Notes under the pieces: model-generated
Database searches by the model: none
What the model saw: only the letters and a program-made list of their open reading frames with translations
Told to the model about the DNA's origin: nothing
In this document: positions 11,240-53,556 of the stretch, in pieces
Position numbering within the stretch: position 1 is the first letter of the stretch
Layout: each line of letters starts with the position of its first letter
Position numbers and translations under genes: made by a program
Source: a virus
Taxonomy: Duplodnaviria > Caudoviricetes
Reading direction: 5' to 3' (one strand)
IMG/VR virus record: IMGVR_UViG_3300020195_000031
Span: 1 to 54,902 of that record
Length of the DNA stretch: 54,902 nt

Positions 11240-11704
11240 TCAATTGATTTGATTCTGGAAAAAACGATAGAACGTCCCGATATTGAGTTTGAAATCAGAA
11301 ACTTTGATGAGTGTCGGGCCAGTCGGATCGTAGATTCTAGAACCATCCCATGCAACTAAATGCCCCTTACCGCTTTCAGAATATGCTGTTATCAGTCCTT
11401 TAGATTGGAGTGTAATTTTCCAAAAATCAGGATGCTCGAATGTTCGACGCTCGGCCGTAAGTGGGTTGCAGACAGTGATGATTCGGTTATATGGTGACAG
11501 TGTTGCTTTTCGCTTCCAGCAACAAACCATCAACTCGTCTAAAAGAAAGCCGCGACGATTCGTCGGTTCGGGTGCATCCGGGAAAATAATCTCCGATCCG
11601 TCGTGGCCGATTTCCTGAACGAGAGCAAAAACGCTCTCGTTCAGGATCATCGCCAACGCTGTTATCGAACACGACCACCGATTAGGTTGTTTCAGTAGTA
11701 GCAT
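11240..11704 (-). CDS. papain-fold C39-like cysteine peptidase
   Basis: KQPNRWSC..TALAM (Q...C) and GHLVAWDG..IYDP (H...D). Confidence 0.7.
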   Translation of the reverse strand: MLLLKQPNRWSCSITALAMILNESVFALVQEIGHDGSEIIFPDAPEPTNRRGFLLDELMVCCWKRKATLSPYNRIITVCNPLTAERRTFEHPDFWKITLQSKGLITAYSESGKGHLVAWDGSRIYDPTGPTLIKVSDFKLNIGTFYRFFQNQIN

Positions 11705-11874
11705 TATCGCCTCTTGCAAGAGTGGTCTTTGCAGTAACAATCATCGCCGCACGGACAAGGAGAAGGCATTTCGTTAGCATGGTTGCAAAGGATTGGAGAA
11801 CGTCGATAGTTGCATGTTGGATTAGCGCAACCATTATCATTCCGTGCAGCACCGCACTCCTCGAACACTACCAT
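11704..11874 (-). CDS. Cys-rich small protein
   Basis: 9 Cys in 56 aa, ending CPCGDDCYCKDHSC. Confidence 0.5.
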   Translation of the reverse strand: MVVFEECGAARNDNGCANPTCNYRRSPILCNHANEMPSPCPCGDDCYCKDHSCKRR

Positions 11875-20100: not shown

Positions 20101-20371
20101 TGGAGCCTTTCCGTTTGCCTGCTTCGACAAACTGTGTAATGAATGCGTCAGCCATCGCCTTGTCAGCACCATGCTGGCCAATTTGTTTTGGTTTGAAACG
20201 CATTGCAAACTTGATCGACAGTAGCTTGCTATATGCTGTCAGAATCACGATATCTTGCTGTGACAGCAACGCCTCTGGTTCGATAACCAACGTACAACGA
20301 TACCTTGGATCAATATGCTTTCGCACGATTGTCAGGGCAGCGTAAGCATTTACCAAAGCGATATTATCCAT
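20084..20371 (-). CDS. hypothetical protein
   Basis: TAATG overlap with the helicase stop. Confidence 0.55.
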   Translation of the reverse strand: MDNIALVNAYAALTIVRKHIDPRYRCTLVIEPEALLSQQDIVILTAYSKLLSIKFAMRFKPKQIGQHGADKAMADAFITQFVEAGKRKGSNGRIR

Positions 20372-24606: not shown

Positions 24607-24685
24607 GTGCAAGCTCCCTGTAGGGTGGTGAATGATGCCAGAATCAAATCGAATTTCTCAGAATCAAATCAATTTGCCGAATTTC

Positions 24686-24970: not shown

Positions 24971-27664
24971 ATGACGACCCGCACAGAGGCAATAACCAAT
25001 TTTCTTAATGCCCGAACACACCCTGATCTAGCTGCCTTATACAACTATGATATGGAGGTACAGGTTCTAGTAGCTCAAGACGGCGGAGAAAGAATCAATG
25101 GTGAATATCAAGGCCGTAAATGGCATGGGTGGACGGACGGTATTCAGGTGTGGAAGCCTTTTCGTGTTCCCTATAACGCAGGCACTAAGCCAGAATTCAC
25201 TGATTCAGAAATCAAATTCGATCTAGACGCTCATGCCGAAGGTATTGGCATGACTGGATGGGATTGGGTGAAGCGTTGTTCTCGGTGGGTCGCGTTTGAT
25301 TTTGATGCCATTGTTGGCCACTCGGAGAGACACAATGCTAAGCTATCTGTAGAACAGTTGCAAGAGGTTGAAAGCAAAGCGAAAGAGATACCTTGGATAT
25401 CTGTTAGACGCTCTGCTGGAGGAAAGGGCCTTCACCTCTACGTTTTCCTTGATCCTGTTGTTGATACTGCTAACCATCATGAACATGCTGCTCTTGCTCG
25501 CAGCATTCTTGGCACTTTGAGTGCGATGACTGGCTTTGATTTTGACAGCAAAGTAGATATATGCGGCGGGAACATGTGGGTGTGGCATCGCAAGATGCAA
25601 TCATCCAATGGTCTTACTCTCGTCAAGCAAGGTGAGCCGTTAGATAATGTTCCTGTTAACTGGCGTGACCATCTAGAGGTTGTAAAGGGTAAGAGTCGGC
25701 GTAATCTGCCTTCCTTTGTCAAAGAAACAGGCGTCGAGCTTGACATCTTTGACCAGTTGTGCGGGACACAAAGCAATGTACCTCTCGATGACGATCATAA
25801 GAAACTGTTGACGTTTCTGCAATCAAACGAGTCGTTTGCATGGTGGGATCAAGATAGGCATATGCTCGTTTGTCATTCACATGATCTAAAGGTTGCCCAC
25901 GACGAGTTGCACCTTAAAGGAATTTTTCATACTCTCGCACAAGGTACGGAAAGTGGTCAAGATCAAAACTGCTATGCCTTCCCTCTCCGAGCAGGTGCAT
26001 GGGTTGTTCGCCGGCATACAAAAGGTGTCGCAGAACACACGACATGGGATCAGGACGCCAGCGGATGGACTCGCTGTTTCTACAATCAAGAACCGGATCT
26101 CAAAACAGCTTGTCAAGCCTTCGGAGCTATCGAAGATCCGAAAACGGGTCAGTTTGTTTTCCGCGAAGCAGAAATGGCCATCGAAGCTGCAAAAGCTCTT
26201 GGCAAAACTATAAGCCTGCCTGCATCAATGGGAATCCATCGCACGACGAAACTATCTGTGCATAAGAGTGGTCGTTTGGTTTGCGAAATTGATGCTACAC
26301 CGCACGACGATGCGAAGTCTCTCCAAGGGTGGCTGGCTAAGAAAGACAAGTGGATAAAGGTGTTTGATGGTAGAATCGAAAACCGAAAAGACGATCTTGA
26401 GGTTGAAAACTATGACGATCTAATCAGGCACGTTGTAGTGGAAAGCTCACGAGCCGACTACGGGTGGCTTATTAGAAGCATGGGAGCGTGGAACGAAGAA
26501 CCGTTGACTCATATCAATGCTGCTCTCAAAGCAATGGGACTCAATCCCAAAGAGCTTAGTGGCGTCGTAGGTAAGGCTGTCGTGCAATGCTGGTTGTTAG
26601 TGAATCGTCCGTTTCAGCCCGAGTATCCGGGCGATAGACAATGGAATCGGAATGCTGCACAGTTACGCTTCACACCCTCACAGGAAGAAAATCTGACGTA
26701 TCCTACGTGGCTCAAGCTGCTTGACCATTGCGGTGAAGGATTGAATGAAGCGATTTCAACAAACAAATGGTGCAAGGAAAATGCCGTTAAGACTGGTTCA
26801 GACTACTTGAAGATATGGGTAGCCAGTATGTTCCAAGAGCCGGAGCAGCCGCTACCGTATCTGTTCTTTTATTCGCCGGAACAGAATACTGGCAAGTCGT
26901 CGTTTCATGAAGCCCTCTCATTACTGATGACACGAGGCTATCAACGAGCAGATAACGCATTGATTTCACAATCGGGCTTCAACGGTGAATTGGAATCCAC
27001 TGTATTGTGCGTCGTTGAAGAAACTGACCTCAAGAAAAATAAGACTGCATCCAACCGCATTAAGGATTGGGTTACAGGCCGGCAAATCAATATTCATAAG
27101 AAGCAGAATACGCCGTATCACGTAATCAATACAACGCATTGGGTGCAATGTTCCAACGACTACGATGCTTGTCCGATGTTCCCCGGCGATACGCGTATCG
27201 TTATGATTCGCGTACCTGCTTTGAAAGAAATGATTCCGAAACGTGATCTGATTCCTCTACTTGAAAAGGAGGCTGCTAATTTTCTCGGTGCTGTCATGCG
27301 TCTCGAATTACCACGCTCCAATGATCGCTTGAATGTTCCTGTAATCGAAACCGCTGAAAAATCAGCAGCTATTGAAAGCAATAAGACATCGCTCCAATTG
27401 TTCATTGAGAAATTTACTTACAATGTTCCCGGAGAGACGATTGAATTCGCCGAATTTTATGACAGGTATCTTGAGTATCTTGACGTTTCTGAGGTCGGCG
27501 ACTGGTCAAAGAAACGAACCAGTCAAGAGTTTCCACCGCACTATCCGAAGGGTGGAGCAACATGGGCGAAGAACAAATTGCATGTAGGCAATATCTCATG
27601 GGAAAATAAAGAAGCGTCTGGAATCAAATTGCACGTTAACAATGGAGTGATGACTAAGCTATGA
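24971..27664 (+). CDS. primase-polymerase (AEP-like) / SF3 helicase fusion
   Basis: VAFDFD and RRSAGGKGLHLY (AEP motifs I and II); EQNTGKS Walker A, VVEE Walker B, CSN sensor. Confidence 0.85.
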   Translation: MTTRTEAITNFLNARTHPDLAALYNYDMEVQVLVAQDGGERINGEYQGRKWHGWTDGIQVWKPFRVPYNAGTKPEFTDSEIKFDLDAHAEGIGMTGWDWVKRCSRWVAFDFDAIVGHSERHNAKLSVEQLQEVESKAKEIPWISVRRSAGGKGLHLYVFLDPVVDTANHHEHAALARSILGTLSAMTGFDFDSKVDICGGNMWVWHRKMQSSNGLTLVKQGEPLDNVPVNWRDHLEVVKGKSRRNLPSFVKETGVELDIFDQLCGTQSNVPLDDDHKKLLTFLQSNESFAWWDQDRHMLVCHSHDLKVAHDELHLKGIFHTLAQGTESGQDQNCYAFPLRAGAWVVRRHTKGVAEHTTWDQDASGWTRCFYNQEPDLKTACQAFGAIEDPKTGQFVFREAEMAIEAAKALGKTISLPASMGIHRTTKLSVHKSGRLVCEIDATPHDDAKSLQGWLAKKDKWIKVFDGRIENRKDDLEVENYDDLIRHVVVESSRADYGWLIRSMGAWNEEPLTHINAALKAMGLNPKELSGVVGKAVVQCWLLVNRPFQPEYPGDRQWNRNAAQLRFTPSQEENLTYPTWLKLLDHCGEGLNEAISTNKWCKENAVKTGSDYLKIWVASMFQEPEQPLPYLFFYSPEQNTGKSSFHEALSLLMTRGYQRADNALISQSGFNGELESTVLCVVEETDLKKNKTASNRIKDWVTGRQINIHKKQNTPYHVINTTHWVQCSNDYDACPMFPGDTRIVMIRVPALKEMIPKRDLIPLLEKEAANFLGAVMRLELPRSNDRLNVPVIETAEKSAAIESNKTSLQLFIEKFTYNVPGETIEFAEFYDRYLEYLDVSEVGDWSKKRTSQEFPPHYPKGGATWAKNKLHVGNISWENKEASGIKLHVNNGVMTKL

Positions 27665-31625: not shown

Positions 31626-32156
31626 TCAATACCTCCAAGACTTAAAATTATGGTGATTAAAATATCGCGACCACAGTGGCAATTCAATCAGCGAAGCAGC
31701 ATAACATGTCCCAAAAGTTTTGCTGATTAGATCAGGGCCAGTAACGTGCATCGTCAAGTCTCTGTCCAGTGTCCGTATGCGCTCAGCATTGTCGATAATA
31801 GTTTGCAACGCCCACTTAATGGGTACTGCTCCCGGAACAGCACCCATTATACAGTTGCCTGCCCCGCTGAATTGTTTGACTGCCCAACAATCAAACAGAT
31901 CCAGCCACGTTGGATATTGCAATGGTTCAACGTCGATATCCACGTATAATCCACCATACCGATACAGCACTTCCAATCGCAGAATGTCAGCGGCCAAACC
32001 CACATTAGGACATTCGGATATTAGATTGCCTGTTACTGGCTTCTCGATAGTGGCCCATGTTTTTACCTCCCACTTGGGGTAGATGATTCTGTAATCAAAA
32101 ACTGCCGGACGTATTTTGTCACCGATCCAAACATGATGGATGATTTTGGGAATCAT
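31626..32156 (-). CDS. glycosyltransferase, GT32/OCH1-like (DXD)
   Basis: MIPKIIHHVWIG, ADILRLEVLYRYGGLYVDID, TGP, HH..SW. Confidence 0.9.
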   Translation of the reverse strand: MIPKIIHHVWIGDKIRPAVFDYRIIYPKWEVKTWATIEKPVTGNLISECPNVGLAADILRLEVLYRYGGLYVDIDVEPLQYPTWLDLFDCWAVKQFSGAGNCIMGAVPGAVPIKWALQTIIDNAERIRTLDRDLTMHVTGPDLISKTFGTCYAASLIELPLWSRYFNHHNFKSWRY

Positions 32157-38215: not shown

Positions 38216-38707
38216 TTAAGCACTCACACTGTAGGTGATTCTGAGAACATCGTCATCAATCACAGGCAGATTAGCAGAAAACAATGCAGTCGCCCACAAC
38301 GTAGCTGCACCAGTGCTACCCTTTGTGTCGATGCTCGCAATAAAGATACCACGAATGCCAACAGTGGCACTAATAGTGAAAACAACCGGCGCAGCATTTG
38401 TAATGACCTGACCCGATGCAGCTCCCTCAGTCCATGCTGGACGCGTCGCTTCATCATAGTCAGAGCTTTCCGTCCATCCTGAATGGGAAGCATGTGTATC
38501 TCCAGCAGCGAGGGCTGTGTACCCTGAATTGTTAATCAGGCCAACGTACCATGCAGGAATCTGCGTGGCCCCATTGAACATGATATTAAGCAGGGCATCC
38601 TTGCCCTGATTCGTAATATCGTTGTGAAAATCATATTCGCCGATTACTTTGCCGTTGCGAACGTGTTCAACAATGAACCGTCCCTTCAAAGATAATTTGT
38701 CAATCAT
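38216..38707 (-). CDS. virion structural (tail fibre anchor-like) protein
   Basis: HNDITNQGKDALLN...WYVGL...DDVLRITY pattern. Confidence 0.6.
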   Translation of the reverse strand: MIDKLSLKGRFIVEHVRNGKVIGEYDFHNDITNQGKDALLNIMFNGATQIPAWYVGLINNSGYTALAAGDTHASHSGWTESSDYDEATRPAWTEGAASGQVITNAAPVVFTISATVGIRGIFIASIDTKGSTGAATLWATALFSANLPVIDDDVLRITYSVSA

Positions 38708-41700
38708 GTTGTACTCGTTGGGGTAAGGTTAACCGTTCCGCGTTGAATCTCTCGGCGTAACGCACGCCCAAGAGCAATAACATTTTCAGGGCTGGCTTCG
38801 GGGCCAGATACAGTGATATTGATTTCACCAACATTCGTCGTCACACTAGCTGTAGCATTTGCGGCATTAGGAAGTAACGGTGAACCACGATCACTGACCT
38901 TCGGGGGAGGTAGACGTTCAGTGATTGTTTCTTGTAGCTTCTTAAGAGAGTTAATCAATTCCTGTGTCGTAGTTTGCCCTGCCTTGTGTTGCCGAGACAA
39001 TTCGTTGATAACCGCTTTGATTCCCTCTTCATTGATTTTAGACGTATTTAGTAAGTCTTGAGCCTCTTTTTGTTTCGCTACAGCATCATTGCGATCTTGT
39101 GCAGCCTGTTGGAATTTCTTGATTTCGTCTAAGAAGTCTTGGAGTAAGCCTTGTGTTGCTTCGGCTTGTTTTTTATTTCGCTCAGCTTCGGCCAAAACCC
39201 CTGGGCTATATGTAACTCCCTCTCGCAAAACTGGAAAGTTTTTAACAATTGCCGCAATCGTTGTTTGCAATGTTTCAAATTGCTTAATGATTTTTTGAGA
39301 AACGCCTTCGGGGTCTTTTGTCGTTTTAAATTCTGCAATATTTTCTAGTAACGCATCAAGGGATTGTTTTGCATTGCCCGTAAGCTGACCTGCTTTTACG
39401 GGTTCGCTGAAAGTCAAACCTGTTGAGCCAACCAAATCTTCAATAATGGTTTCAAAATCTTTAAGCGTATTTCCGAAGATGACCGATGCTTCGTCTCGTC
39501 GTGCAGTAAAGGCGGCTCGCAAATCACCAGCAACTTTGACAAAGTTCGTCAAGTCGATTGTCAAATCGGAGACGGCCTTTTCTGCAAGTTTCAAAGCTGC
39601 ATTTGATTTCTCAATCGCTACAGCTTCTTGAAGTCTAAGCTGTTTTGCTTCCAAAGACTGGACAAGGTTAAATTTGTCAATAGGATTGATTCCAGCCCCA
39701 CCAAGGTCAAGCTTCTTGATTTTGTCAAGGGCTTCGGCGACTTCTGCTAAGCCCCCATCCGTTGCTGCGGCTTCGGAGATATCTTGCAGATGTTCATCTA
39801 GTTGTGCGAAGATTGATTTTTGAAACTCTAGATGTTTCTCTTTTGCTTTTTGAATCGCTTCTTGACGAGCCTGTTCTTCGCGTTGAAACTTGAGTCGTTC
39901 CTCAGCAAGAGCATTGAAAGTTGTCTCAAGCTCAATTAGACGTTGCCGAGCCTTTTCACGAGCCTCATGAGACTTTTTCTCATCTTGGCTCAAGTTGAGA
40001 TTGATCTGGAATCGACGCTCAAGGAGCCTATTGATTTCTTCGTATAGGCGAAGCACCTCTTCCGGATTGGCGTCCTGACCATTCTGCAACGCCTGTGCTT
40101 TTGTTCGAAGCTCATTCGTTCGCTTCAAGAGAGCATCTAGTTGCTTCGCAGGGTCATCAATCTGCGAGAAGGAACGCTCAAAGATTCCGGACTCGTTGTC
40201 AATCGTCAATTGGCGAGTCAGATCAATGAGTTTTTCAATTGCTTTTTCAGAATCTTTCAACGAATCTTCGGTCAGCTTCAAAGCCTTATCCATTGCACTT
40301 TCAATACTCTTACCGGCGGCCTTGAACGCCTTTTCAGCCTTCTTTGCACTACTTTCTGCCGCATCACCCAAACCGTTCAAAACCAATCGAATGGCAGCAA
40401 GGACTCTAGCATATTCACCTTCAACTGCCCCAATCTGATCTTTCAGCCCTTCTTGAACCTTTGTGAAACCTACGCCTTCGGCGTCACGAGCATCAGCATT
40501 TAGTTTTCGCAACGCGAGGCTGAATTCCGATAACCTATCTCTTGCTGCTTGCGCTTCAACACCTGCTGAAATAATTTTGTCAATAACGAAACCGAGACCA
40601 AGAGTAAGGCCGAAAGACACAACGCCTTGCAAGGCAGAGAATGCCCCACGCAACAGAGTTATAGATGTACGAACACCAAGAATCCTATTAGCAGCAATGG
40701 ATGCTTGTACAGCAGTCACCTGCCCCCAAGCGAGCGTTGCCAGTTTGACAACACCCCATCCGATGGCCAATTCTTTCACAATATTCAGAAGCGGGATAAT
40801 CCCGTCTTTCATTTCACCGAAAAGCTTACCAGATTGATTCAAGAATCTAATGAAAGGTTGACCAAAGCTTTCTTGTAGAGCGATACCAAGGGACTTGACC
40901 TGCTTCTCAAGTTGTTTGGCCTGATTCTCGAAAATGATTGTAGAAGCGGTTGCCGCCAGATTACTTGGGTCTTTCAGTTGGCCAACGGCTTCGGCATGTT
41001 GACGACGCAATTCTGCATTGCGTACAGTCTGTTCAGCCGCTCGACGGCCACGAAGATCAGGGAACAATTCAGCGAGTGCTTCCTGACCTTCGCCTGTTCG
41101 CTCAAACTGATTGAACAATTCTTTCATGAACCCGGTCAAACGCAGAGCAGCAATACCTTGACGTACTGTGCTGAAACCCATCTTGTCCAGAGTTTCTTGC
41201 AGCACCTTGGACGGCTTCGACATTCTGTTGAACAGGTTGCCGAGGTTCGTCATCGTCGTATGCGTGTTGACGCCTTGACGACTGATGACGGCAATCGAGG
41301 CTCCCATTTCCTCAAACGTGATGCCTAACGGTGCGGCGGTTGCTGAAAGGTTACCGATTTCAGCAAGCTCACTAGCTGTCGAGCGAGAGATATCAATAAG
41401 TCTAAAGAGAACGTCCGTAAGGTGTTCCGCTTCTTGAGTAGACAACTGGAACGCATTGACAAGACTGGATAGAGCCTTAGCGGTCGTCGCAACGTCCGTG
41501 ACACCGATCAGCGAGAGTCTAAGTGCAGCGTTCAAAAACTGAACAGCTTCCGCACCTTGAGCAATCTGGTCAGAAATGATTTGATAAGCGGCGGCCGCCG
41601 TATCCGTATTATCTGCACCAAACGCTCGCGACACTCTGTTAATAGTGTCAGCCCACTGGCTGAAAGACAGTTGAGCATTTTGTGAAATCGTTCTGATTTC

Positions 41701-43245
41701 GGAAATCTTTTTCTGGAATTCTGCCGAAGCACGCACTGATTCAAAAATCGCACTCGTCAACCGGCCAACGACAAGATGGATTTGCTGAACAAGCAGCAAA
41801 CGGGCAAAGAATGACCAGCGGTTGATGAGAGTATCAACCGATCGTTTTTGGTCATCATTGTTCTTGATGATCCGGTCAGAATTTGATTTTAGCTTCTTTG
41901 TTGCGTTGTCATGGGTCTGCATCAATCCAAGCAAGGCACGTTGGATCGCTGACAATCGCTGAATGGTTCCGGTTGAAAAAGCGGTATATGCTTTTTGGTA
42001 ATCAAGGAGCGTCGCCTTGCCCTTGAGCATAGGCTCAATGAGTTTGTTAAGGGAGATTGTTACTCTGTTAATATCAGGGAAGGCCGCATTCGCTGGTATT
42101 GATGGCGTAAATTGCTGTGCCAGAATATCAGCACCGGCACCACGCTGATTAGCAAATGATTCTGCCCTCGCTTGAACATTCGCTAATTCGCGAGAAACAG
42201 CTAATTGCTTAATCAATTCCCCTGTTGCCTTTTGAGCAGCGAGTGCAATTTTTCTTTGTGCTTGCTCTAGTTTTTGCTGAGCAGCCTCTTGCTTTGCTGC
42301 CGTTCGAGCGATGGCTTCTGTAGCATCCTGATGCCGCTGCATCAAGTTAAGAAGCGTTCGTTGAATCGGCGATAGCTGTTGAACAGTTCTTGTTGAAAAT
42401 GCCTGATACGCAGTTTGATAATCTGCCAATGATGCCTTACCCGCACGCATGGGGTCTAAGAGGCTATTCAAAGCAAATGTGATTTTATTCACATCTCTTT
42501 GGATAGCATTCGCTGGAATTGCTGTTGTTCCAAATTGTCTTGCAAGAAGATCGGTACCAACTTGACGTTGGCCTTGAATTGTTTCTGACCGCGATTTTGT
42601 TTCTGCTTGCACTCTTGCTAATTCTTTAGCAGCAGCCAATTGCTTAAGCAATTCGCCCTTTGCATTACGAGCAAGCAATGCAGCTTTTTCATAAGCTTTT
42701 TGGGCAGCTAATGCTGCTTTCTCATGAGCCTTTTCTTGTTGCTTAACTAGGCCAACAATACGGCGGATAACAGTAACAAGCCCAGCTTCCATATCTGTGG
42801 CAGCAACTGAACTACCATTTGAAATCGCTGCAAAAAGCTCATCATATCTTTCTTTCGTCACTCCAGACGCAGCGGCGGCTTTTTTCAGCTGTGTTAAAAG
42901 CGGAGTAAAATGTTGCGTGGTGTTGGCACTAGCATCCCCGAAAACATTTCCAAAACCTGTAAATTTCCCTCTTGCGGGTGAGACAATACGATTCGTTTCG
43001 GCGTTTCGTGTCTTGAGCAATTCAGTTTGGCGTCTCAATTCACCATTCAATCCGCCTACTGCTTTCTTCATCCGGTTAACTGATGCAATAGCCTTGACGT
43101 TAGAAGCATTCTGTTTTGCTTCTTGGTCAATAATCCCTTTCAGCGTATTAGTAAGGGCCTTAGAGGCTGTATTGATATTCGACAACGCAGCTAATGCACT
43201 ACGTGCATCGCCAAGAATTTTGATGAAATCGGTCGTTGTTGCCAT
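38704..43245 (-). CDS. tail tape measure protein
   Basis: 1513 aa, Ala/Leu/Gln-rich helical; TP901-type core (AAAAYQIIS, GITFEEMGASIA); follows the chaperone genes. Confidence 0.92.
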   Translation of the reverse strand: MATTTDFIKILGDARSALAALSNINTASKALTNTLKGIIDQEAKQNASNVKAIASVNRMKKAVGGLNGELRRQTELLKTRNAETNRIVSPARGKFTGFGNVFGDASANTTQHFTPLLTQLKKAAAASGVTKERYDELFAAISNGSSVAATDMEAGLVTVIRRIVGLVKQQEKAHEKAALAAQKAYEKAALLARNAKGELLKQLAAAKELARVQAETKSRSETIQGQRQVGTDLLARQFGTTAIPANAIQRDVNKITFALNSLLDPMRAGKASLADYQTAYQAFSTRTVQQLSPIQRTLLNLMQRHQDATEAIARTAAKQEAAQQKLEQAQRKIALAAQKATGELIKQLAVSRELANVQARAESFANQRGAGADILAQQFTPSIPANAAFPDINRVTISLNKLIEPMLKGKATLLDYQKAYTAFSTGTIQRLSAIQRALLGLMQTHDNATKKLKSNSDRIIKNNDDQKRSVDTLINRWSFFARLLLVQQIHLVVGRLTSAIFESVRASAEFQKKISEIRTISQNAQLSFSQWADTINRVSRAFGADNTDTAAAAYQIISDQIAQGAEAVQFLNAALRLSLIGVTDVATTAKALSSLVNAFQLSTQEAEHLTDVLFRLIDISRSTASELAEIGNLSATAAPLGITFEEMGASIAVISRQGVNTHTTMTNLGNLFNRMSKPSKVLQETLDKMGFSTVRQGIAALRLTGFMKELFNQFERTGEGQEALAELFPDLRGRRAAEQTVRNAELRRQHAEAVGQLKDPSNLAATASTIIFENQAKQLEKQVKSLGIALQESFGQPFIRFLNQSGKLFGEMKDGIIPLLNIVKELAIGWGVVKLATLAWGQVTAVQASIAANRILGVRTSITLLRGAFSALQGVVSFGLTLGLGFVIDKIISAGVEAQAARDRLSEFSLALRKLNADARDAEGVGFTKVQEGLKDQIGAVEGEYARVLAAIRLVLNGLGDAAESSAKKAEKAFKAAGKSIESAMDKALKLTEDSLKDSEKAIEKLIDLTRQLTIDNESGIFERSFSQIDDPAKQLDALLKRTNELRTKAQALQNGQDANPEEVLRLYEEINRLLERRFQINLNLSQDEKKSHEAREKARQRLIELETTFNALAEERLKFQREEQARQEAIQKAKEKHLEFQKSIFAQLDEHLQDISEAAATDGGLAEVAEALDKIKKLDLGGAGINPIDKFNLVQSLEAKQLRLQEAVAIEKSNAALKLAEKAVSDLTIDLTNFVKVAGDLRAAFTARRDEASVIFGNTLKDFETIIEDLVGSTGLTFSEPVKAGQLTGNAKQSLDALLENIAEFKTTKDPEGVSQKIIKQFETLQTTIAAIVKNFPVLREGVTYSPGVLAEAERNKKQAEATQGLLQDFLDEIKKFQQAAQDRNDAVAKQKEAQDLLNTSKINEEGIKAVINELSRQHKAGQTTTQELINSLKKLQETITERLPPPKVSDRGSPLLPNAANATASVTTNVGEINITVSGPEASPENVIALGRALRREIQRGTVNLTPTSTT

Positions 43246-44507: not shown

Positions 44508-44990
44508 TTACGATCCGAGCGTTCCGCTCAACACAGCAGTCTTAGCGTTGCATTGTCCGGTGACAGAAATCTGACCACCCCGAGAATCATGTTCCAGCGT
44601 TTCCCAACGGAAATCCGGGAACGTAATAGTGTCGTCAATCACCGGATCTGAGCAATCGGGGTTGTAGTTCAAAACGACATCAACGGCATACGGCTCACAG
44701 GCATCCGCCGAAGTTGTTGCCCAATCACTCGCTTCTCCAATATTCTTGAAAGCATCTTCAAGATTCGTTGTCCCGTTGCCTGACAGACGTTCCCACTGGA
44801 AGTCCATCCGAAGCTCAAGAGGAATCTCATCACCTTCACGCACGGTGTCAATGAGACCCTTATCAAGAGCGTATTCCATATTCCGACGCTCGGAATAGGT
44901 CAGGTTGCCTTCACCGATTTTAACTTCAATGAAGTTCGCTCCGCCGTCTTGCACCTGAATAGTGCAATATTTCAAATCAAGCTTTGCCAT
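44508..44990 (-). CDS. major tail (tube) protein
   Basis: 160 aa, acidic and beta-rich, directly upstream of the chaperone. Confidence 0.7.
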   Translation of the reverse strand: MAKLDLKYCTIQVQDGGANFIEVKIGEGNLTYSERRNMEYALDKGLIDTVREGDEIPLELRMDFQWERLSGNGTTNLEDAFKNIGEASDWATTSADACEPYAVDVVLNYNPDCSDPVIDDTITFPDFRWETLEHDSRGGQISVTGQCNAKTAVLSGTLGS

Positions 44991-46376: not shown

Positions 46377-47798
46377 TTAACCAAACATAACAGCACCGAG
46401 CTTATCCTCAAGCTTGGCAACGCCGCCAAGCATATCAACAGTCACCAGATGACCCTGATCCATACCAAGGTAAGTGATCGTGATACGCAGAGACAGACCC
46501 TTATGGTTCACAACACTGGACAACGCACCCGTACCCTGCTTCGGCGTAGCCAGAGGACGAGTAATCAAAGCAATCGCATTCTTGTGGAATGCCCAATTGT
46601 AGTTGCCCGGAGGGCCGTAGTTGACGTTCGCACCGTCGGCTACCGCGATTTCAAGGGGCCGATCAAGCATGAACTGCTTGTTTGCAGAATCAGTAGCAAC
46701 CACGGCGTACTTGGCAACCGTTGACGGGGCAGCCGTTCCAAAGGTCACGAGAGTACCAACCTCGGGGGCGATCGTCACAGACTGATCGACAATGATCCAG
46801 CCGTGCCAACCAGCACGGTAGCCAGCAACCGACGCCGTACCACCAGCGTCCAGCGTGGTAGCCGTCTGATTCACCGTATCACAGGTATACATCAGAACAG
46901 CCGCACCGCTAGTCGTGGCAGCCTTAATCGGAGGCCACACGGTGAAGCTAACACCTGCAGAAACAGAAACGACCAGATGGGGCTGCATATCGCCAGCCAC
47001 CGTAAGGAAGTTTCCAGCAACGGCACCCGTCGTGGCCGTGACCGGCAGAACGGTCGCGTTAGCAAGGGTGCTAGCGTCCGTCGTCGTGCTGGCAGCCGTA
47101 GTACCAGTCACAATCGCGGGCTGATTTTGAGCCATCGCAATGGTGAATTGGAATTTGCGACCAAGAATCGCCTCACGGAGAGCAGAACCGTCGTCACCGA
47201 GCTTATCAGCCTCGGTGAATTCATCAATCTCAAGGAGGTTGGTTTCGGTGTCCGGCGTGACGATCAGCCAGCGACCGCCAACATACGCCTTGTTCTTATT
47301 CATGACGTTACGAACGCCAAGAATCGTGTTCTTCGTCGCGGCAGTACCAAGCTTGCCGAACGTATTGGTGAAAGCAAACTGGCTGATCGCGAAGGTAGAA
47401 ACAACGAGGTCAATCGCACGAGCGATAGACAGTACCGCAGGAGACAGGTACATGTCAATCAAGTCTTTGAACGCAAGAGACTCTTCGCCATCCTTGATGA
47501 TGAACGAGGTGTGCCAGTGCTGGTTCAAAGTCACAGGAATGTTATCAGTGATAGCATCCTGCACAGTGACCTGTTCACGATCAATCTTACGTTGGGCGGT
47601 GAATTCACGGGGCTTCCGAGTATTCACAACGTCACCGAAACGGGCAATAATGGGTTCAAAATCACGGTGAATCAGATTCGCCACAACCATATTCTCTTCC
47701 AGAATCGCCAAGCCTTCATTGGCCCAAAATTCTGGATTCATCGCCTCAGCATTCTCATTTTCGTAGAAGCCGACAGTAGTAGGACAGAAATCAAACAT
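46377..47798 (-). CDS. major capsid protein, P22 gp5-like with inserted domains
   Basis: PEFWANEGLAILEENMV.ANLIHRDFE...GDVVNTRKP and AFHKNAIAL.TRPL; start trimmed to MFDF (AGGA RBS). Confidence 0.9.
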   Translation of the reverse strand: MFDFCPTTVGFYENENAEAMNPEFWANEGLAILEENMVVANLIHRDFEPIIARFGDVVNTRKPREFTAQRKIDREQVTVQDAITDNIPVTLNQHWHTSFIIKDGEESLAFKDLIDMYLSPAVLSIARAIDLVVSTFAISQFAFTNTFGKLGTAATKNTILGVRNVMNKNKAYVGGRWLIVTPDTETNLLEIDEFTEADKLGDDGSALREAILGRKFQFTIAMAQNQPAIVTGTTAASTTTDASTLANATVLPVTATTGAVAGNFLTVAGDMQPHLVVSVSAGVSFTVWPPIKAATTSGAAVLMYTCDTVNQTATTLDAGGTASVAGYRAGWHGWIIVDQSVTIAPEVGTLVTFGTAAPSTVAKYAVVATDSANKQFMLDRPLEIAVADGANVNYGPPGNYNWAFHKNAIALITRPLATPKQGTGALSSVVNHKGLSLRITITYLGMDQGHLVTVDMLGGVAKLEDKLGAVMFG

Positions 47799-48576
47799 GT
47801 TGTTTTCCTGTTGCACGGACACCGGGGATGTTCCCTTTAGCTCGCTCTTCCCGGTACTTAGCCGGGTCTTTGAGAATAGCTGAAAGGTTTTCAGACACCG
47901 ACCCTGACCCTGCATTGGGCATCGTACCCAAGCCGCCAGTTGATTTGTTCTTGAAAAGATTTCCCCACTTTTTGGGGTGCTTCGTCATCTTCTCGATAAT
48001 CTCGGAAGGTGATCCTGAAATCTTTTCAATCTTCCCGTCTTTGTCAGGAATGTCCCAAGAGGTCTTAGGAACAAGATTTCCTGTTTTCTTTCCGCCCGCA
48101 TCAATCTCTTCTGCCAGTTCAGTGTTGGGGCCTAGCAACGCAACGACTTGTTCAGGATCATAGGCATCGTGCTGCATAGCCCCATCCAAAATCGCCCGCT
48201 GAATAGAAGCCTTGGTATAGCGATTTTTCCAAGTCTCCCGATCAGTGGTAAGTGAATCAACTGCTTCTTTGTGCTTGCGAGCGGATTCCGTCCGCTCATG
48301 CTCCGTCTGTTCTTCCTTGGTGCGTAAAGACTTTTGGACATCTTCCAACTGGGTCTGTAATTCGTTACGTTGTGCTTCTGTCAGCCCTTTGGCTTTCAAT
48401 GCACTTGTTAACCCATCTTCCGACTTCTTCAATTTTGCTTGCCATTCTTTTCGCTCTTTGGCGACAAGTGAATTCACATGGTCTTGCGTGAACGTCTTGT
48501 TCTTGTCGTCTACCGGCGGTTCAACGGGTGGCTCGACCGGCGGATCTTCAAAGAAACCAACTGTGACGTTAGACAT
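47791..48576 (-). CDS. capsid scaffolding protein
   Basis: KTFTQDHVNSLV, long coiled coil, NLFK...GG.G; immediately upstream of the capsid gene. Confidence 0.85.
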   Translation of the reverse strand: MSNVTVGFFEDPPVEPPVEPPVDDKNKTFTQDHVNSLVAKERKEWQAKLKKSEDGLTSALKAKGLTEAQRNELQTQLEDVQKSLRTKEEQTEHERTESARKHKEAVDSLTTDRETWKNRYTKASIQRAILDGAMQHDAYDPEQVVALLGPNTELAEEIDAGGKKTGNLVPKTSWDIPDKDGKIEKISGSPSEIIEKMTKHPKKWGNLFKNKSTGGLGTMPNAGSGSVSENLSAILKDPAKYREERAKGNIPGVRATGKQHV

Positions 48577-48591
48577 AACTGCTCCCTGAAA

Positions 48592-48990
48592 CTAAGACAC
48601 CCTACTAAGTTTGATGGTTTTGTCTTCGCGCAGATATGGCATCAAATGCTTCCATGCAGTTGCACTAGGAATTCCTGCCATAACATGATCGCCGACACCG
48701 GATCGGTCGTAGGTTGTACTGATCCCCACATAGCGTTGACTCGTAACCCTCGCCGTTTCTTCTTCGACTTCCGGGTCTACTCCGTCAAGAAGCGCGAGTG
48801 CAATTTCACAACAAGCGATTTTAATGTCATCAGGAACCGGATCAGGCAAGTCAATAAAATCGAGAAGATCGACCATTCGGGTTGCTGTTGCCAACGCCTT
48901 GATTTTATCAGCAGGCGTAGCATCGTCCCACGGAGACGTATGGAGACGCTCTTCAAAATAAGCCATTGCGTATGTTAAGTCTGCGTGCAT
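48592..48990 (-). CDS. head-tail adaptor-like protein
   Basis: A.AYF.ER...W...KAL..AT..D.L...VPDDIKIACCEIA...L.PYL pattern. Confidence 0.7.
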   Translation of the reverse strand: MHADLTYAMAYFEERLHTSPWDDATPADKIKALATATRMVDLLDFIDLPDPVPDDIKIACCEIALALLDGVDPEVEEETARVTSQRYVGISTTYDRSGVGDHVMAGIPSATAWKHLMPYLREDKTIKLSRVS

Positions 48991-49829
48991 CCATCTTCCT
49001 TTCTATTGAACATGTATTTCCGGATGTAGTCGTTTTGACTATTTTTAGACCACTCAAAAACACCATCGTCATTGAGTCTCAAATCAGTCGGATTAAAAGT
49101 TTTAAGCGGTTCATGTCGTCGCATGTATTTGCGATCTGGTATTGACCCGTGCCAAAATGTTCGGACTGTTCCGTCTACGCAGGCGAGCGATTGCGGGCCA
49201 AGCGTCTTGCACCAAGCAAGGTAGTGGGCGATATACTCTTTATTGTGCCTAGGAACAAACGAATTCATTTTAATTCGTTGAAGCCAATGTTTTTCGCCGT
49301 AGACACAGCCTTGCAAAAAGAGTACGTCTCCGCCTCCCACAATACCGTACTCGTACAAGCCTTTCTTCCAAAGGTCTATATTGATTCCACAAGCAAAACC
49401 TGATCCTCGACTCTGCATTCCTTTTCCTTGAACCCAACGAAAGATAGCTCCGGTAAAGGTTCCTTCTTTCTCGCGTTCATAACGAGTAAAGGGTTGCACA
49501 ACCGTATAGTCGTCCATCGCGTCAACGGTTCGTTTGAACCAATCAGGTTCAAGGAATTCGATATCTCCGTCTAACCAAATGATTTTGTCGAAACCTTCTC
49601 GAATCAATCTTTGGGCGAGGAGATTCAGGAGACGTTCTTTATGCCAGAGCCAACTCGTTGACCGGGCAATCATTGTTGCTTGAATCAACGGTTCGTCATT
49701 TTGAAGTAGTTGGATCGTCGCGTGCGGCACATTCCCTAATTGATTCCGAAATCTCTCATAGTTTTCTCTTCTGGATGTCCAATTGCATGGATTCCAGTAA
49801 CATGAGATTGTTATTGGGTTGTTAGGCAT
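48975..49829 (-). CDS. glycosyltransferase-like protein (GT-A, DXD)
   Basis: LWHKERLLN, IIWLDGDI, VVQPF, IVGGGD, WHG motifs. Confidence 0.65.
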   Translation of the reverse strand: MPNNPITISCYWNPCNWTSRRENYERFRNQLGNVPHATIQLLQNDEPLIQATMIARSTSWLWHKERLLNLLAQRLIREGFDKIIWLDGDIEFLEPDWFKRTVDAMDDYTVVQPFTRYEREKEGTFTGAIFRWVQGKGMQSRGSGFACGINIDLWKKGLYEYGIVGGGDVLFLQGCVYGEKHWLQRIKMNSFVPRHNKEYIAHYLAWCKTLGPQSLACVDGTVRTFWHGSIPDRKYMRRHEPLKTFNPTDLRLNDDGVFEWSKNSQNDYIRKYMFNRKEDGCTQT

Positions 49830-50298
49830 TTAGATGGCTGTTGGTGTACATTTCGAGAATCAAAGTAGTCAGCCCGTCGTAGTAGTCGCCTACGGCTACT
49901 TTGAAACCGAGCTTATCGAGAACGCCTTCGGTGGAAATAGACTTTTCAGTATTTGCCAAGATAGGTTTTTCGATTTCAGTGACAAGATCGACCATGATGA
50001 AGTCCGATTCTGACTGCAAAATGATCTGCCACACATCGTTATCTTCAAACTTTTCTCCGGATTCAGTGATTATCTGCCGGAGGGTTTTCATTTCCTCCAG
50101 TAGCTCTGCTTGGATCAATGTCATCATTTTTGGCCTTTCAGTAACTGTCATGTCTACGTCAAACACTTCACCACTCTCAAGCTTACGTCTTAGAAGCACC
50201 TGTGCAGCCCGCTTACAAAAGGTAACTACCCAATCGCCACCATCACTAGGACGATAAATAGCCACCAAATCGTTTTGGACTTTACATCTTAGGTGCAT
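49822..50298 (-). CDS. hypothetical protein
   Basis: ORF overlapping the portal end. Confidence 0.5.
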   Translation of the reverse strand: MHLRCKVQNDLVAIYRPSDGGDWVVTFCKRAAQVLLRRKLESGEVFDVDMTVTERPKMMTLIQAELLEEMKTLRQIITESGEKFEDNDVWQIILQSESDFIMVDLVTEIEKPILANTEKSISTEGVLDKLGFKVAVGDYYDGLTTLILEMYTNSHLNA

Positions 50299-51910
50299 TC
50301 TTTTCGGCTCCTGCATCCGTTGATGGACTCAAATCAGGAACGCCTCGTGCTGCTGGTGCTTCCGCGATTCTAGAAGCACGGTCTTTCTTGGCTTCTTCTG
50401 GAATGCCTAGAGCAATAGCAGCATCTTTATTGCTCATGATTCCAGCTTCAACGGCGGCAAAGACGGTCTCCGGGTCGGTTGTAAGAATCGTTGCTTTGTC
50501 AATCTCTGCAAGGATTGTGTCCAGAATCTTTTCCGTCACTCGACCAGCAAGAAGGGTCGTGGCAATCATCTTGCCGACTTCCTTCTTATACGTTATGCTC
50601 GGTGCGGCAGCGGAGCGTTCTTGGAGCTTCTCGATCTCGTCGAGAATATCTCTGTCGCTCTTGAGCGAGTACCTCTTGGGGTACGTTACGTCGGCAGGTT
50701 CGGTCTTTTCGTACTTGGCCCATATCTTCGCCAAGCATCGTTCACCAATCTCTAACACCAAACCGATGGCAGATAAGCCAGCTTCAAGACCCTTCTGATC
50801 CATTTCCTTGCTATCGGCGGAAGAGTGTTTAGGTTGCACACCGGAAAGAGCAAGATTGAGGAGGACACGAATATCCTCTTTCATCTGCTTTTCTTTTTCC
50901 ATCGAAGCCTTGAGAGGCTCGGTAGGCGGAGCAATGAAGCCGGGTCGCTCCATTCCTTTTGCATAGGCTCGTCCGTGCGTCGTGCCAGTCGTGATATTGT
51001 CATCCGTCTTACTTACCTCGCCATCCTCTGTTCCGTCGGGTTGACGCTTGATATGGCTACCGGTTTTGGAATCACGTTGTTCAGTGTAGAACGGGTAATT
51101 CGCTTTCAGGATGTAGCCAAGGTCTGCCGATTCAGTGTTAAGGAGAGCGATTTGGTAATCACAAATGTCCTGCATCAGTGAGATAGTGATTTCAAAAACA
51201 TGAAACGGAATCTGATCGAGATCCAAAATCTGTTCGGGGCCGTCTTTGATTGTCTCACCCTTCTCGCCTTCGAGAAGGAATTGAACATGCACCTTATTAT
51301 CTTCGGCGATCCATGCTTTGCGGAAGCGTTCAATGCAACCACTAGGGACACCTAGCTCTTTGTCAATGACCATTGTATGGTCGCGAAGCAAAACACTCTG
51401 ATAGTCCCAAGGGTCGCCATTCTTGCTTGGCAACCATGATCGGATATCTTCGGCTTTGTAGACGTACATGTACGGCGAGTCGGTTTTAAGTGCTTGAGTC
51501 GCCGAGTCCGGAATCGGTTGCCGGTCGACCCATACACCAACCTTCCGCATCGTTAACACTTCATGAAGAATCTGGTTGCCGATAAAGGCATCCATACTGG
51601 AACCACGAAGATCAACGCCTTTGCCTTTTCCTTTGATCGCGTCTTGATAGTTAGCCGGGCCACCTTTTCGAGAGACGCTAGAGATTCGTTGAAAGATCGC
51701 ATTTCTTACATCAAGGATACTACTTTTGGCAAAGGCGGGATTGTAAGTGATTGCTGATCGTTCATTAAAATCATCATCATCTTCGCGTTGCGAAAATTTA
51801 ATCAAATACCGATTGATGAATTTGCGGCCACCCTCAAAAGTGAGTCGCCACTTCTCATAATTCTCTGCATCAGAAATATAGTCAGGATGTTTGATTCCAC
51901 TTAGGCTCAT
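50282..51910 (-). CDS. portal protein
   Basis: 542 aa after TerL; KHPDY...W..WR.T.EGG...YL...RE...F.ER pattern. Confidence 0.85.
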   Translation of the reverse strand: MSLSGIKHPDYISDAENYEKWRLTFEGGRKFINRYLIKFSQREDDDDFNERSAITYNPAFAKSSILDVRNAIFQRISSVSRKGGPANYQDAIKGKGKGVDLRGSSMDAFIGNQILHEVLTMRKVGVWVDRQPIPDSATQALKTDSPYMYVYKAEDIRSWLPSKNGDPWDYQSVLLRDHTMVIDKELGVPSGCIERFRKAWIAEDNKVHVQFLLEGEKGETIKDGPEQILDLDQIPFHVFEITISLMQDICDYQIALLNTESADLGYILKANYPFYTEQRDSKTGSHIKRQPDGTEDGEVSKTDDNITTGTTHGRAYAKGMERPGFIAPPTEPLKASMEKEKQMKEDIRVLLNLALSGVQPKHSSADSKEMDQKGLEAGLSAIGLVLEIGERCLAKIWAKYEKTEPADVTYPKRYSLKSDRDILDEIEKLQERSAAAPSITYKKEVGKMIATTLLAGRVTEKILDTILAEIDKATILTTDPETVFAAVEAGIMSNKDAAIALGIPEEAKKDRASRIAEAPAARGVPDLSPSTDAGAEKNAPKM

Positions 51911-53556
51911 AGGAAACTTCCAATATCGGAATTGCTGACAACAGACGCTGCCAGCGGGAGAGCGATTTCAGCGTAATTGTGAGCGTGACCGTAGTGGTCT
52001 GCGGCAGTATTCTGCCATCGGCCTATCGGATTACCTTCGGCGTCTTTTTCGTAGACACGAACAAGGGCCTTAATCTGCTTCTTATATTCGTCGGGTAGAT
52101 CGTAAGGGATTGCGATGGTATGTTTCTGGAATCGAGACAAGCTCAGATCGAGCCAGCTTGTTCTATCTACGTTGATTTGATGATCTTCGTAGAAGTCATC
52201 TTCGCCACGCACTGTGATGCCTTTGGCGGCAACGCCTCGCGAGTAGTAACAAAGCTTGACATAGCCGGGGAAGCGGTCAGCGAATTCTTTGGCTTTGCGT
52301 TGCTCCGGAAACTTGTCAACAACACAACCATGAATCTGATACGTCCGCATCACCTTGTCAAGATCTTCAAATTCTTTGAGCTTGAAGGCCCGAATCATTT
52401 TCGGTGTGCTGTAGACATTGATATCCGGCCCCATCACTACGTCCCATTCCAAAATCTCGCAATGCAGGAAGGAGCCAACGTCGACGCCCATCGTCCGTAG
52501 TTTGGATGGATTGATTGCAGCATCATTATTGTAACTGTGCTGGCACTTGGTAAAATCATCATCCGTAACTTGAGCGCCTTTTACAAGGTGGGCAAGACCA
52601 AGCTTATTGTTGTAAAAGTGCGTTTCTTCCGTCGGGTCGGACAGGCCGGCAATGTAAGAACGGGCAAATTCCACCGGACTGATGGTGGATGAATACATCT
52701 GATTCACCGACCACGCTAGAATCTCAGGATCTTTCTTGGCTACGACTTCCCACGTTCCGTCGGCGAGCCAAGCCCATTTGTTCTTTGAATCTAATTTCCC
52801 TTTACATTCCTTGCATTGCATGTACGAGTCGTGGATTCTAGGATCAATTAAGGATTCGCTCGTACAGACGAAACAGTCGGGAAAGGTTAGCTCCGTATGT
52901 CTTGAACACAAGGGGCATTTGAAGAAGAACCTTTGCTCTGTACTGACCTGCACTTCTTTGTCGATGCCCCAATTGGGGATCGTCGGCGTTGAAATCTTCC
53001 ACACCTGCTTATACATTTGACCCGACATACGTTCAATGGCAAACTTGGCATTCGTTTGATCCATCGCATCATATTCGTCGAGTACCATGAAGCCGACGGG
53101 GATTGAGCGGAGACCAGATTCAGAATGTGAACCTCGAATGTACAGACTCGTCGGCCCGGCCCGCTTATGGCCGACGTTTTTAACATCAGAAAAGAGTTTT
53201 TTAAGGTGCTCGCTCAATTCGAGCATAACGTCAAACCGTGATGCGGAAAAGTCACCGGCGTCCGGCGTCTTATTCGGAAGAACATACAAGCAGTCGATTC
53301 GACGAACGTCGATCATGAAGAAGGTACGTTGTAAGACTGTTTGAGTGTACGCAGCCTGTGCGGACTTTCTTCCGTTGTTGACCGGAGCCTCCGAGTCGTG
53401 CATTGCTCGCGACCACGGATGGTACTTGAAAGTTAATGGCCCCGGTATAGGATTACCGAGAACGATGTACTTTTGTGCCCAATCAGAACACTTTTGTACG
53501 GATCGTCGATTAAGGCCAGCCTTAATAGATTCCTTGATTTGGTCAGCTAGCTTCAT
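51907..53556 (-). CDS. terminase large subunit, lambda GpA-like
   Basis: RKSAQAAYT, LDEYD, ISTPT, CPLC...CKEC, MGVDVG, DHYGHA. Confidence 0.9.
   Translation of the reverse strand: MKLADQIKESIKAGLNRRSVQKCSDWAQKYIVLGNPIPGPLTFKYHPWSRAMHDSEAPVNNGRKSAQAAYTQTVLQRTFFMIDVRRIDCLYVLPNKTPDAGDFSASRFDVMLELSEHLKKLFSDVKNVGHKRAGPTSLYIRGSHSESGLRSIPVGFMVLDEYDAMDQTNAKFAIERMSGQMYKQVWKISTPTIPNWGIDKEVQVSTEQRFFFKCPLCSRHTELTFPDCFVCTSESLIDPRIHDSYMQCKECKGKLDSKNKWAWLADGTWEVVAKKDPEILAWSVNQMYSSTISPVEFARSYIAGLSDPTEETHFYNNKLGLAHLVKGAQVTDDDFTKCQHSYNNDAAINPSKLRTMGVDVGSFLHCEILEWDVVMGPDINVYSTPKMIRAFKLKEFEDLDKVMRTYQIHGCVVDKFPEQRKAKEFADRFPGYVKLCYYSRGVAAKGITVRGEDDFYEDHQINVDRTSWLDLSLSRFQKHTIAIPYDLPDEYKKQIKALVRVYEKDAEGNPIGRWQNTAADHYGHAHNYAEIALPLAASVVSNSDIGSFL

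Follow-up and report, generated by a model that had tools for sequence, protein, structure and literature searches.

The scaffolding protein and the major capsid protein encoded in the 54,902-bp IMG/VR contig analysed here (record IMGVR_UViG_3300020195_000031; the whole contig is referred to as the window) begin with the same short sequence. This shared tag is probably a leader peptide that can be removed, a type so far undescribed in phage assembly, and comparison of related sequences suggests that a phage-encoded peptidase removes it from the virion proteins; we put the probability of this reading at about 0.6. The candidate enzyme is the product of an open reading frame (ORF) at 11240-11704 on the minus strand. 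The CheckV completeness of the window is ~58%, and complete relatives of the phage are 84-97 kb long. The original prediction for this DNA had regarded the shared N-terminus as a processing signal analogous to the one used by phage 80alpha and the host protease Prp, with a different motif, and the comparative data argue in favour of that view.

The scaffolding protein gene (47791..48576, minus strand) encodes 261 amino acids (aa) starting MSNVTVGFFEDPP and lies directly upstream of the capsid gene, which it overlaps. An in-frame stop is found five codons upstream, so the ATG at 48576 is the sole possible scaffold start. The protein is identified by its gene position and by weak matches (phrog_2303 'head scaffolding protein' at 3.5e-4, with DUF4355 and Phage_scaffold both under the cut-offs), and scaffold homologues are present in all related genomes examined. 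The major capsid protein gene (46377..47798, minus strand) encodes a P22-type coat of 473 aa starting MFDFCPTTVGFYENEN, which passes the gathering score of the Pfam family P22_CoatProtein (PF11651; 93 bits versus 24, E 2.2e-26, residues 26-473, profile positions 13-423) and matches phrog_283 at 1.4e-53. The capsid frame is open from 47915, and the ATG at 47798, which overlaps the scaffold stop by 8 nt, is the start that agrees with the homologues and with the database protein P0001 (473 aa, 100% identical); the capsid does not begin downstream of the shared sequence. Since the PF11651 match begins at residue 26, the shared sequence sits in an extension outside the family profile.

The motif from which the original prediction set out, TVGF[FY]E, has exactly two occurrences in the six-frame translation of the window, at scaffold residues 5-10 (48547-48564, minus strand) and capsid residues 8-13 (47760-47777, minus strand). 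The same codon is used at only two of the five identical motif residues, and the likeness is therefore at the protein level. The putative scaffold leader is MSNVTVGFF (residues 1-9; 48550..48576, minus strand), with a junction at F9/E10 placed by alignment with related scaffolds (in sequences, a slash marks the junction here and below), and it is followed by an acidic, proline-rich linker, EDPPVEPPVEPPVDD. The corresponding capsid leader would comprise residues 1-12, MFDFCPTTVGFY (47763..47798, minus strand), with a junction at Y12/E13. As a control for chance, all 1653 pairings of 58 window genes were scored over their first 22 residues. Scaffold and capsid reach 32 and are tied at the top with one unrelated pair, the next score being 31 (mean 12.8, standard deviation 3.3); with this tie, the window by itself offers no proof beyond chance, and the case rests on related phages. 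Scaffold and capsid are the only tagged proteins in the window. Two others, the product of ORF 11-955 and the helicase at 20371-22290, have N-termini that also resemble the capsid leader (scores 29 and 28) and were tried as a third tagged protein; both N-termini are conserved whatever the leader type, even in the leaderless genome G028, and are thus chance look-alikes.

We then compared the N-termini across the related phages. Among 8000 candidates scored, 674 capsid relatives were found at E<=1e-10, and none of the 120 matches listed carries a cultured-organism name. Their N-termini follow the pattern hydrophobic-x-x-[FW]-x-x-[VA]-[YF], then [ADE]-N-[DS]-x-D-A-[FY]-[IV]-P-E-x-W. A profile scan of IMG/VR gave 491 relatives, of which 80 loci were kept and 53 non-redundant loci were used for the analysis of co-variation. 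In the kept loci, the scaffold is encoded by the ORF that precedes the capsid gene, and the N-termini of the two proteins mirror each other within a phage. For example, capsid and scaffold carry KMFAPVY/ANDN and KMFVPVY/EDAA in locus L006, KARFVGY/DNSL and RARFVGF/DGDG in L058, RSRSWYG/VNDN and KDRSWYG/EGDG in L064, and MMYQIKWVG/ANDVD and MSYQIKWVG/EDEV in L080. The leader is 10-20 residues long, differs in sequence between phages, matches between the proteins of one phage, and ends in an aromatic or Gly residue followed by A/D/E. The literal TVGF[FY]E is not conserved in the homologues; what is conserved is the whole phage-specific leader with its match within each phage. The alignment of related N-termini that had been suggested as a check thus bears out co-variation and contradicts a fixed motif.

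The best ungapped capsid-scaffold score over the 53 loci averages 29.8 when both proteins come from the same phage (median 31) and 17.7 when they come from different phages (median 17). With all 53 scaffolds ranked for each capsid, the scaffold of the same phage comes first in 22 cases and within the top three in 33, and the low scorers include scaffolds cut by contig ends (L005, L015, L071 and L073) as well as the leaderless L046. At identical leader residues, 86/184 codons are identical against 77.3 expected (p = 0.11). This near-expected codon identity indicates that the leaders are kept alike by selection acting on the peptide and not by recent gene conversion, and gene conversion between the starts of the two genes, which we had considered as their source, is unsupported.

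The position at which the leader ends is fixed. In the 91 of 120 capsid homologues with canonical spacing, P1 is Y in 56, F in 18 and G in 7, P1' is A in 41, D in 23 and E in 8, and P2 is V in 39 and A in 19. In 29 aligned pairs, the scaffold junction shows Y (11), F (9), G (3) or H (2) at P1 and E (16) or D (8) at P1'. Leaderless capsids start exactly at this junction, as M-A-N-[SDLV]-x-D-A.., with a stop codon just upstream; the cultured phages R5C and Pan1, which have distant P22-type coats, begin likewise, and Hiyaa begins VANT... Leaderless scaffolds start within or after the linker. Both proteins are leaderless in the L047/L101 lineage, L127, L125 and L123/L130, and a leaderless capsid is found together with a leader on the scaffold in L121/L129, L131 and perhaps L124; none of the loci examined clearly has a leader on its capsid but not on its scaffold. 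In a quick maximum-likelihood tree built from 62 capsid cores, at least 3 changes are required for the state with neither leader and 3 for the state with the scaffold leader only; the state with both was the default for the remaining loci, a few of which have truncated or unseen scaffolds.

Some capsid genes depart from this arrangement. A subgroup consisting of L028 (record G010), P0049 and P0112 has an Arg/Gly-rich N-terminal extension (..RRGIRAGGL..) unlike the scaffold leader (..NRYF/EDPP). In L001 (2975-4030) the capsid gene is split: a first exon with the leader and the N-arm follows right after the scaffold stop, and the rest comes after an insert of ~1 kb. This insert holds a 246-aa ORF with a LAGLIDADG_3 domain (6.5e-9), and it weakly matches a group I intron (23 bits, E 0.0018, under the gathering score). 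The capsid homologues of L076 (~3001) and protein P0113 do not begin until the ..ENMV..HRDF region, which is closely preceded by a stop, and their genes may be interrupted as in L001, or their starts may be miscalled.

The tag is not confined to scaffold and capsid, as had first been assumed; relatives also carry it on the tail tube, the tape measure and the tail fibre. The tail-tube-like protein of the window (44508..44990, minus strand; 160 aa) is leaderless and begins MAKLDLK.... Its assignment is based on an Atlas feature score of 0.96 to a cluster that is 80% Phi812_tail_tube and on template modelling (TM) scores of 0.62-0.70 to tail tube families. Among 42 non-redundant homologues, 19 start M/AQIDLK and 23 are extended directly before AQIDLK (in one of these the extension is a shifted Met start only). 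The tube extension scores 24.9 on average against the capsid leader of its own phage and 15.0 across phages. Similarly, the tape measure protein of the window (38704..43245, minus strand; Pfam PhageMin_Tail, 2e-23) is leaderless (MATTTDFIKILG...), and the tape measures of G021 and G006 carry the ..WYG leader of their own phage. In G021 this leader stands on five proteins, namely the scaffold, the capsid, the tape measure (this one assigned by PHROG families), the tube homologue and a 535-aa fibre in which the Mtd_N tail-fibre domain begins at residue 11; 0/50,406 internal sequence windows of G021 reach the scores of the tagged proteins. The tube is tagged along with the tape measure in G006, and it is tagged also in G008 and G016. 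G009 (L155) has two tagged tandem 91-aa paralogues at 26226-26513 (..ATSY/DS..) and 26545-26832 (..ASSF/DA..).

A tag found on head and tail proteins alike, with leaderless homologues starting at its end, is what would be expected of a removable leader and would be hard to square with a fitted structural element. Structural mimicry, in which the scaffold N-terminus imitates the capsid N-arm in one pocket, was dropped as the main explanation because the same tag is found on tape measure, tube and fibre proteins. Two observations on these proteins are added here. The 254-aa ORF of G009 at 70019-70783 may bear a leader too (..PFASVF/GDDGG), and L054, L071 and L072 have a tandem pair of tail-tube-like genes, both leaderless despite the leaders on their own capsid and scaffold.

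The candidate leader peptidase (11240..11704, minus strand) is a stand-alone Cys/His peptidase-like protein of 154 aa counted from the ATG at 11704, the longest ORF starting from a TTG at 11740. Its family comprises 1870 cluster representatives at E<=1e-3 and 381 at E<=1e-30, nearly all of ~150 aa. All 92 family members compared have Cys12 and His115, and >=90% of them keep Asp126, His34 and further residues. A Gln residue lies six residues ahead of the Cys in most of 13 aligned family sequences, so the catalytic residues would follow the order Gln-Cys-His-Asp, the same as in 17 bona fide C39 domains. The Atlas model of the protein has a predicted TM score (pTM) of 0.83, and its structural neighbours, with TM scores of 0.64-0.65, lie in clusters carrying Peptidase_C39 (PF03412). 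An hhalign comparison with the 17 C39 domains gives a probability of 69.9% (E 4.1e-5) over 67 columns, in the N-terminal half only, with the Gln..Cys motif aligned. The C39 hidden Markov models (HMMs; PF03412 and PF13529) do not match the window protein at E<=0.01 or at E<=10, one of the 92 members matches C39_2 at E 0.25, and nothing is found at E<=10 in the six frames of the window. The Gly-Gly (or Gly-Ala/Ser) site of C39 enzymes is not found at the predicted P2-P1 positions, which are Val/Ala followed by Tyr/Phe. The earlier description of this ORF as C39-like is thus retained for the residue order and the predicted fold neighbours, and given up for the HMM match and the Gly-Gly site: the product is best described as a putative Cys/His peptidase with a C39-like fold, and not as a C39 member. 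A tblastn search with it against 50,697 cultured phage records gave no match.

As the original prediction had stated, a prohead protease is not apparent: Pfam finds no protease family in 40 window ORFs (which include all of >=150 aa and few of those below ~130 aa), and no gene of the classical ClpP/S49-type or HK97/T4-type is recognisable when ten head-module ORFs are also run against PHROGs, in a window that covers ~58% of the genome. By gene-content comparison only, no prohead protease is apparent in the conserved head modules of relatives either.

The peptidase and the leader occur together. A peptidase homologue is present in 15/27 related IMG/VR records from a first search and in 2/7 from a second. 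Among leader-bearing records that are >=50% complete, it is present in 18/20 (the window counted), both complete ones included. The two exceptions, G010 and G030, are explained by contigs that end just before the region, since both records also lack the adjacent NYN, ligase and 314-aa genes. The leaderless genome G028 (72.9 kb) allows the opposite comparison. Its ends match neighbouring genes of its leader-bearing sister G029, which is 72% identical; as these ends abut in the gene order of G029, G028 is near-complete and lacks only ~1.2 kb. No peptidase homologue is found in G028 (protein search at E<=0.1, profile search at E<=1), and the syntenic slot between the conserved flanking genes holds unrelated ORFs, namely a 214-aa ORF that is sigma-factor-like by eye only and other small ORFs. 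We defined as core the 24 real window genes with homologues in all four leader-bearing comparison genomes (G029, G008, G021 and G009). G028 keeps 22/24 of them; it lacks the peptidase and one gene that falls inside the contig-end gap, so that, of the core genes that can be assessed, the peptidase alone is missing. When viral and metagenome contigs were scanned by pattern for further near-complete leaderless genomes, the leaderless capsids found besides that of G028 were on short contigs only. The peptidase is likewise found in 0/3 complete cultured leaderless phages with a distantly related P22-type coat (E<=1). The presence and absence of the peptidase and of the leader appear from these comparisons to form a clean correlation, with in-clade loss seen in one genome.

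From these observations we propose the following mechanism. Residues 1-9 of the scaffold and 1-12 of the capsid would be a removable leader, part of a tag-and-peptidase system that may be common to a large uncultured clade of siphophages whose coats are P22-type. Each phage would have its own version of the 10-20-residue leader on scaffold and capsid, and many relatives would place it also on the tube, the tape measure, the fibre and small proteins, around a family-level core of [KR]-x-[FW]-x-x-[VA]-[YF]/[ADE]. The product of ORF 11240-11704 would recognise this leader and cut after the aromatic or Gly residue, the scissile bond being predicted to within one or two residues. The cut would yield the N-termini that leaderless homologues make directly, (A/D/E)-N-D-x-D-A-F-I-P-E-x-W for the capsid and A-Q-I-D-L-K for the tube. 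Finally, the leader may keep self-assembling virion proteins in a pre-assembly state, or route them via a common factor, until they are processed; all the tagged proteins self-assemble, which makes a tag that delays or coordinates assembly plausible. In its fullest form, to which we give slightly less than an even chance, the proposal is a private addressing system in which a phage-specific leader on scaffold, capsid, tube, tape measure and fibre is read and removed by a co-evolving C39-like cysteine peptidase that thereby licenses assembly. This would reuse the leader/peptidase logic of bacteriocins for virions, and the enzyme would be the first clan-CA maturation protease of a tailed phage to act on tail as well as head proteins.

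Several points weigh against leader removal by this peptidase. First, cleavage of the leader is deduced from comparison of sequences in uncultured members of the clade, and within the window alone the resemblance of the two N-termini is no better than the best chance pair. Secondly, the peptidase family has no sequence match in Pfam, PDB or PHROG, either with the protein or with profiles of 13 and 92 homologues; its putative fold is assigned from Atlas predicted models and one profile-profile match covering the N-terminal half, and the predicted Val/Ala and Tyr/Phe at P2-P1 would be unlike the Gly-Gly site of known C39 enzymes. The gene also lies among replication and nucleotide-metabolism genes, outside the head module. 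Thirdly, 11 leader-bearing records that are <50% complete, whose contigs may or may not reach the region, give no peptidase match. The co-loss within the clade is seen in one near-complete genome that still lacks ~1.2 kb, and G028, compared with its sister G029 (L114-L120), is also without non-core genes, among them the ribonucleotide reductase and several small genes. Lastly, in the passages of PMC5744158 on 80alpha, the N-terminal sequence of the scaffold is needed for assembly and its cleavage is dispensable, so the essential role of the leader need not be its removal.

The alternative that survives best is that the leader is kept, as a shared docking tag for a common partner (the Cys/His protein as a chaperone, or another factor) or for mutual pairing of the proteins. 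Co-variation and portability need only a common binding partner, and C39-like domains that bind substrates without cutting them exist. The requirement for the 80alpha N-terminus and not for its cleavage points the same way, and a common chaperone is suggested by its authors in the passages concerned (PMC5744158). We nevertheless consider a retained tag unlikely. An active enzyme would be expected to keep Cys12 and His115 unchanged, as all 92 members do. In two protein families, homologues without a leader begin right at the junction, and on at least three independent occasions the capsid has lost its leader with one retained on the scaffold, so the capsid body works untagged. Moreover, one tag on capsid, tube, tape measure and fibre cannot fit each of their different lattices.

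Cleavage of the leader by a host protease, with another role for the phage Cys/His protein, is a distinctly poorer explanation. It has a precedent in 80alpha and Prp, where the same motif is also described on a tail protein of phi13 (passages of PMC5744158), and the commonest junction here, aromatic/Ala, resembles the F/A site of Prp. A host look-up gave 7 matches in species genomes labelled from Saccharibacteria to methanogens; these metagenome-assembled genome (MAG) labels are inconsistent and identify no usable host, and the peptidase is found in one of three of those MAGs searched, on a small contig. On the other side, inspection by eye finds no NLQ-type core of ribosomal protein L27 (motif as given in the relevant passage of PMC9405229) in 120 capsid or 53 scaffold N-termini, and the window has no Prp gene (PF04327). 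The leaders differ strongly between related phages and match within one, which fits a co-evolving recogniser encoded by the phage better than a conserved host substrate, and the phage peptidase is lost along with the leaders. Of the two proteases that had been put forward as candidates, the phage enzyme tracks the presence and loss of the leader, and the host enzyme is disfavoured by leaders that vary and lack likeness to L27. A chance likeness of two N-termini without shared function, for which the unrelated window pair that also scores 32 and the two fortuitous look-alikes of the capsid leader might be quoted, is scarcely credible given co-variation within phages over 53 non-redundant loci, at least three lineages in which scaffold and capsid both lack the leader, and the same tag on further virion proteins.

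Processing of a phage-specific leader by a phage-encoded peptidase was also compared with known systems. In 80alpha, according to the passages on processing, host Prp shortens scaffold and capsid by 13-14 N-terminal residues, cutting at an F/A bond (PMC5744158); the L27 motif is given as MLxx(D/N)LQ(F/L)F'A(S/H)KK (PMC9405229). As far as these passages describe it, the 80alpha/Prp system has several features in common with the present one: a short N-terminal sequence is common to a scaffold and a capsid that are unrelated in other respects, the cut (predicted here) falls after an aromatic residue and takes off a similar number of residues, related phages have the tag on further, non-homologous virion proteins (a tail protein among them), and a cysteine protease (a candidate here) is encoded outside the head module. 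The differences are that the 80alpha tag copies the host L27 extension and its enzyme is a host protein of family C108, clan CR, whereas here the tag varies by phage and shows no L27 likeness by eye, the candidate enzyme is phage-encoded and C39-like, and the capsid is P22-type. In phage Cp-1, a phage cysteine protease, placed with Prp in clan CR, removes a ~40-residue N-terminal extension of the capsid protein (passage on Cp-1 in PMC9405229). The present candidate would likewise be a phage-encoded cysteine protease trimming a capsid N-terminal extension. The Cp-1 enzyme differs in its clan, and the passage on Cp-1 mentions no shared scaffold or tail tag.

The exporters of bacteriocins and other peptides provide a likeness to the putative enzyme itself. 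Their C39 domains remove a 15-30-residue N-terminal leader from several precursor peptides, after Gly-Gly. The candidate has the Gln a few residues before the Cys and then His and Asp, a similar predicted fold and a profile-profile match at Gln..Cys. In contrast to the exporter domains, it has no match at the HMM level, stands alone at ~150 aa with no fused ATP-binding cassette transporter, and would cut at Val/Ala-Tyr/Phe rather than Gly-Gly, and its proposed substrates are large structural proteins that stay in the cytoplasm. In T4, a short N-terminal capsid targeting sequence is common to several internal head proteins and is removed in maturation, and the proposed leader is similar in being a short tag on several head proteins. 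However, the T4-type prohead protease belongs to the serine class, has a different fold and is encoded in the head module; it acts inside the prohead and is not known to act on tail proteins. The present candidate is of cysteine type and lies outside the head module, and the tag is found also on tail proteins. P22 has a separate scaffolding protein and is not known to undergo maturation cleavage. The phages described here share its coat family and the separate scaffolding protein, and differ by the leader that precedes the Pfam coat profile; cultured phages with distant coats of this family start MAN.. or VAN.., leaderless, and are without the peptidase.

To our knowledge, particle maturation in tailed phages relies on serine prohead proteases in the head, with host Prp in 80alpha-like phages as the known exception. 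Trimming of capsid N-termini by a cysteine protease is known from Prp/80alpha and Cp-1, so the kind of event is not itself new. The enzyme family appears to be new, as does a leader that is specific to each phage, co-varies between its proteins, extends to both head and tail and is associated with P22-type coats. A full-text literature search, with most subscription journals outside its coverage, returned only 80alpha/Prp and unrelated papers and no C39-like enzyme tied to phage capsid or tail processing. If the proposal is true, a phage cysteine peptidase acting on a phage-specific leader of head and tail proteins would be a third solution to maturation, and a widespread one, with 1870 peptidase cluster representatives and several hundred related capsids. 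It would account for the N-terminal extension on these P22-type coats, give a rule to predict mature N-termini in metagenomic phages, and make virion proteins findable by their tag. As a simple system of two components, leader and peptidase, it could also be used to probe N-terminal processing in self-assembly, a question left open for 80alpha.

The remaining genes of the window place these proteins in context. A minus-strand structural operon holds the head module with the scaffold and capsid genes. Ahead of these lie, on the same strand, the GpA-type large terminase (51907-53556; Pfam and phrog_675), the portal (50282-51910; phrog_145), two ORFs with no known family, and an adaptor-like ORF (48592-48990); four small minus-strand ORFs separate the capsid from the tail-tube-like ORF, after which the operon continues with the tape measure. 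Between the portal and the scaffold lies a 284-aa ORF (48975-49829, minus strand) of no known family, at a position where relatives hold other genes. The rest of the window carries replication and nucleotide-metabolism genes (PolA, a UvrD-type helicase, ribonucleotide reductase, ligase, two ParB-like genes and NYN). A 176-aa ORF at 31626-32156 (minus strand) matches a glycosyltransferase DXD-region family (Gly_transf_sug, 1.8e-8). The two ParB-like genes, with ParB_N and HTH_ParB, are located at 19121-19969 and 23620-24612 (both minus strand) on either side of a helicase-like gene, and both are kept in every relative compared.

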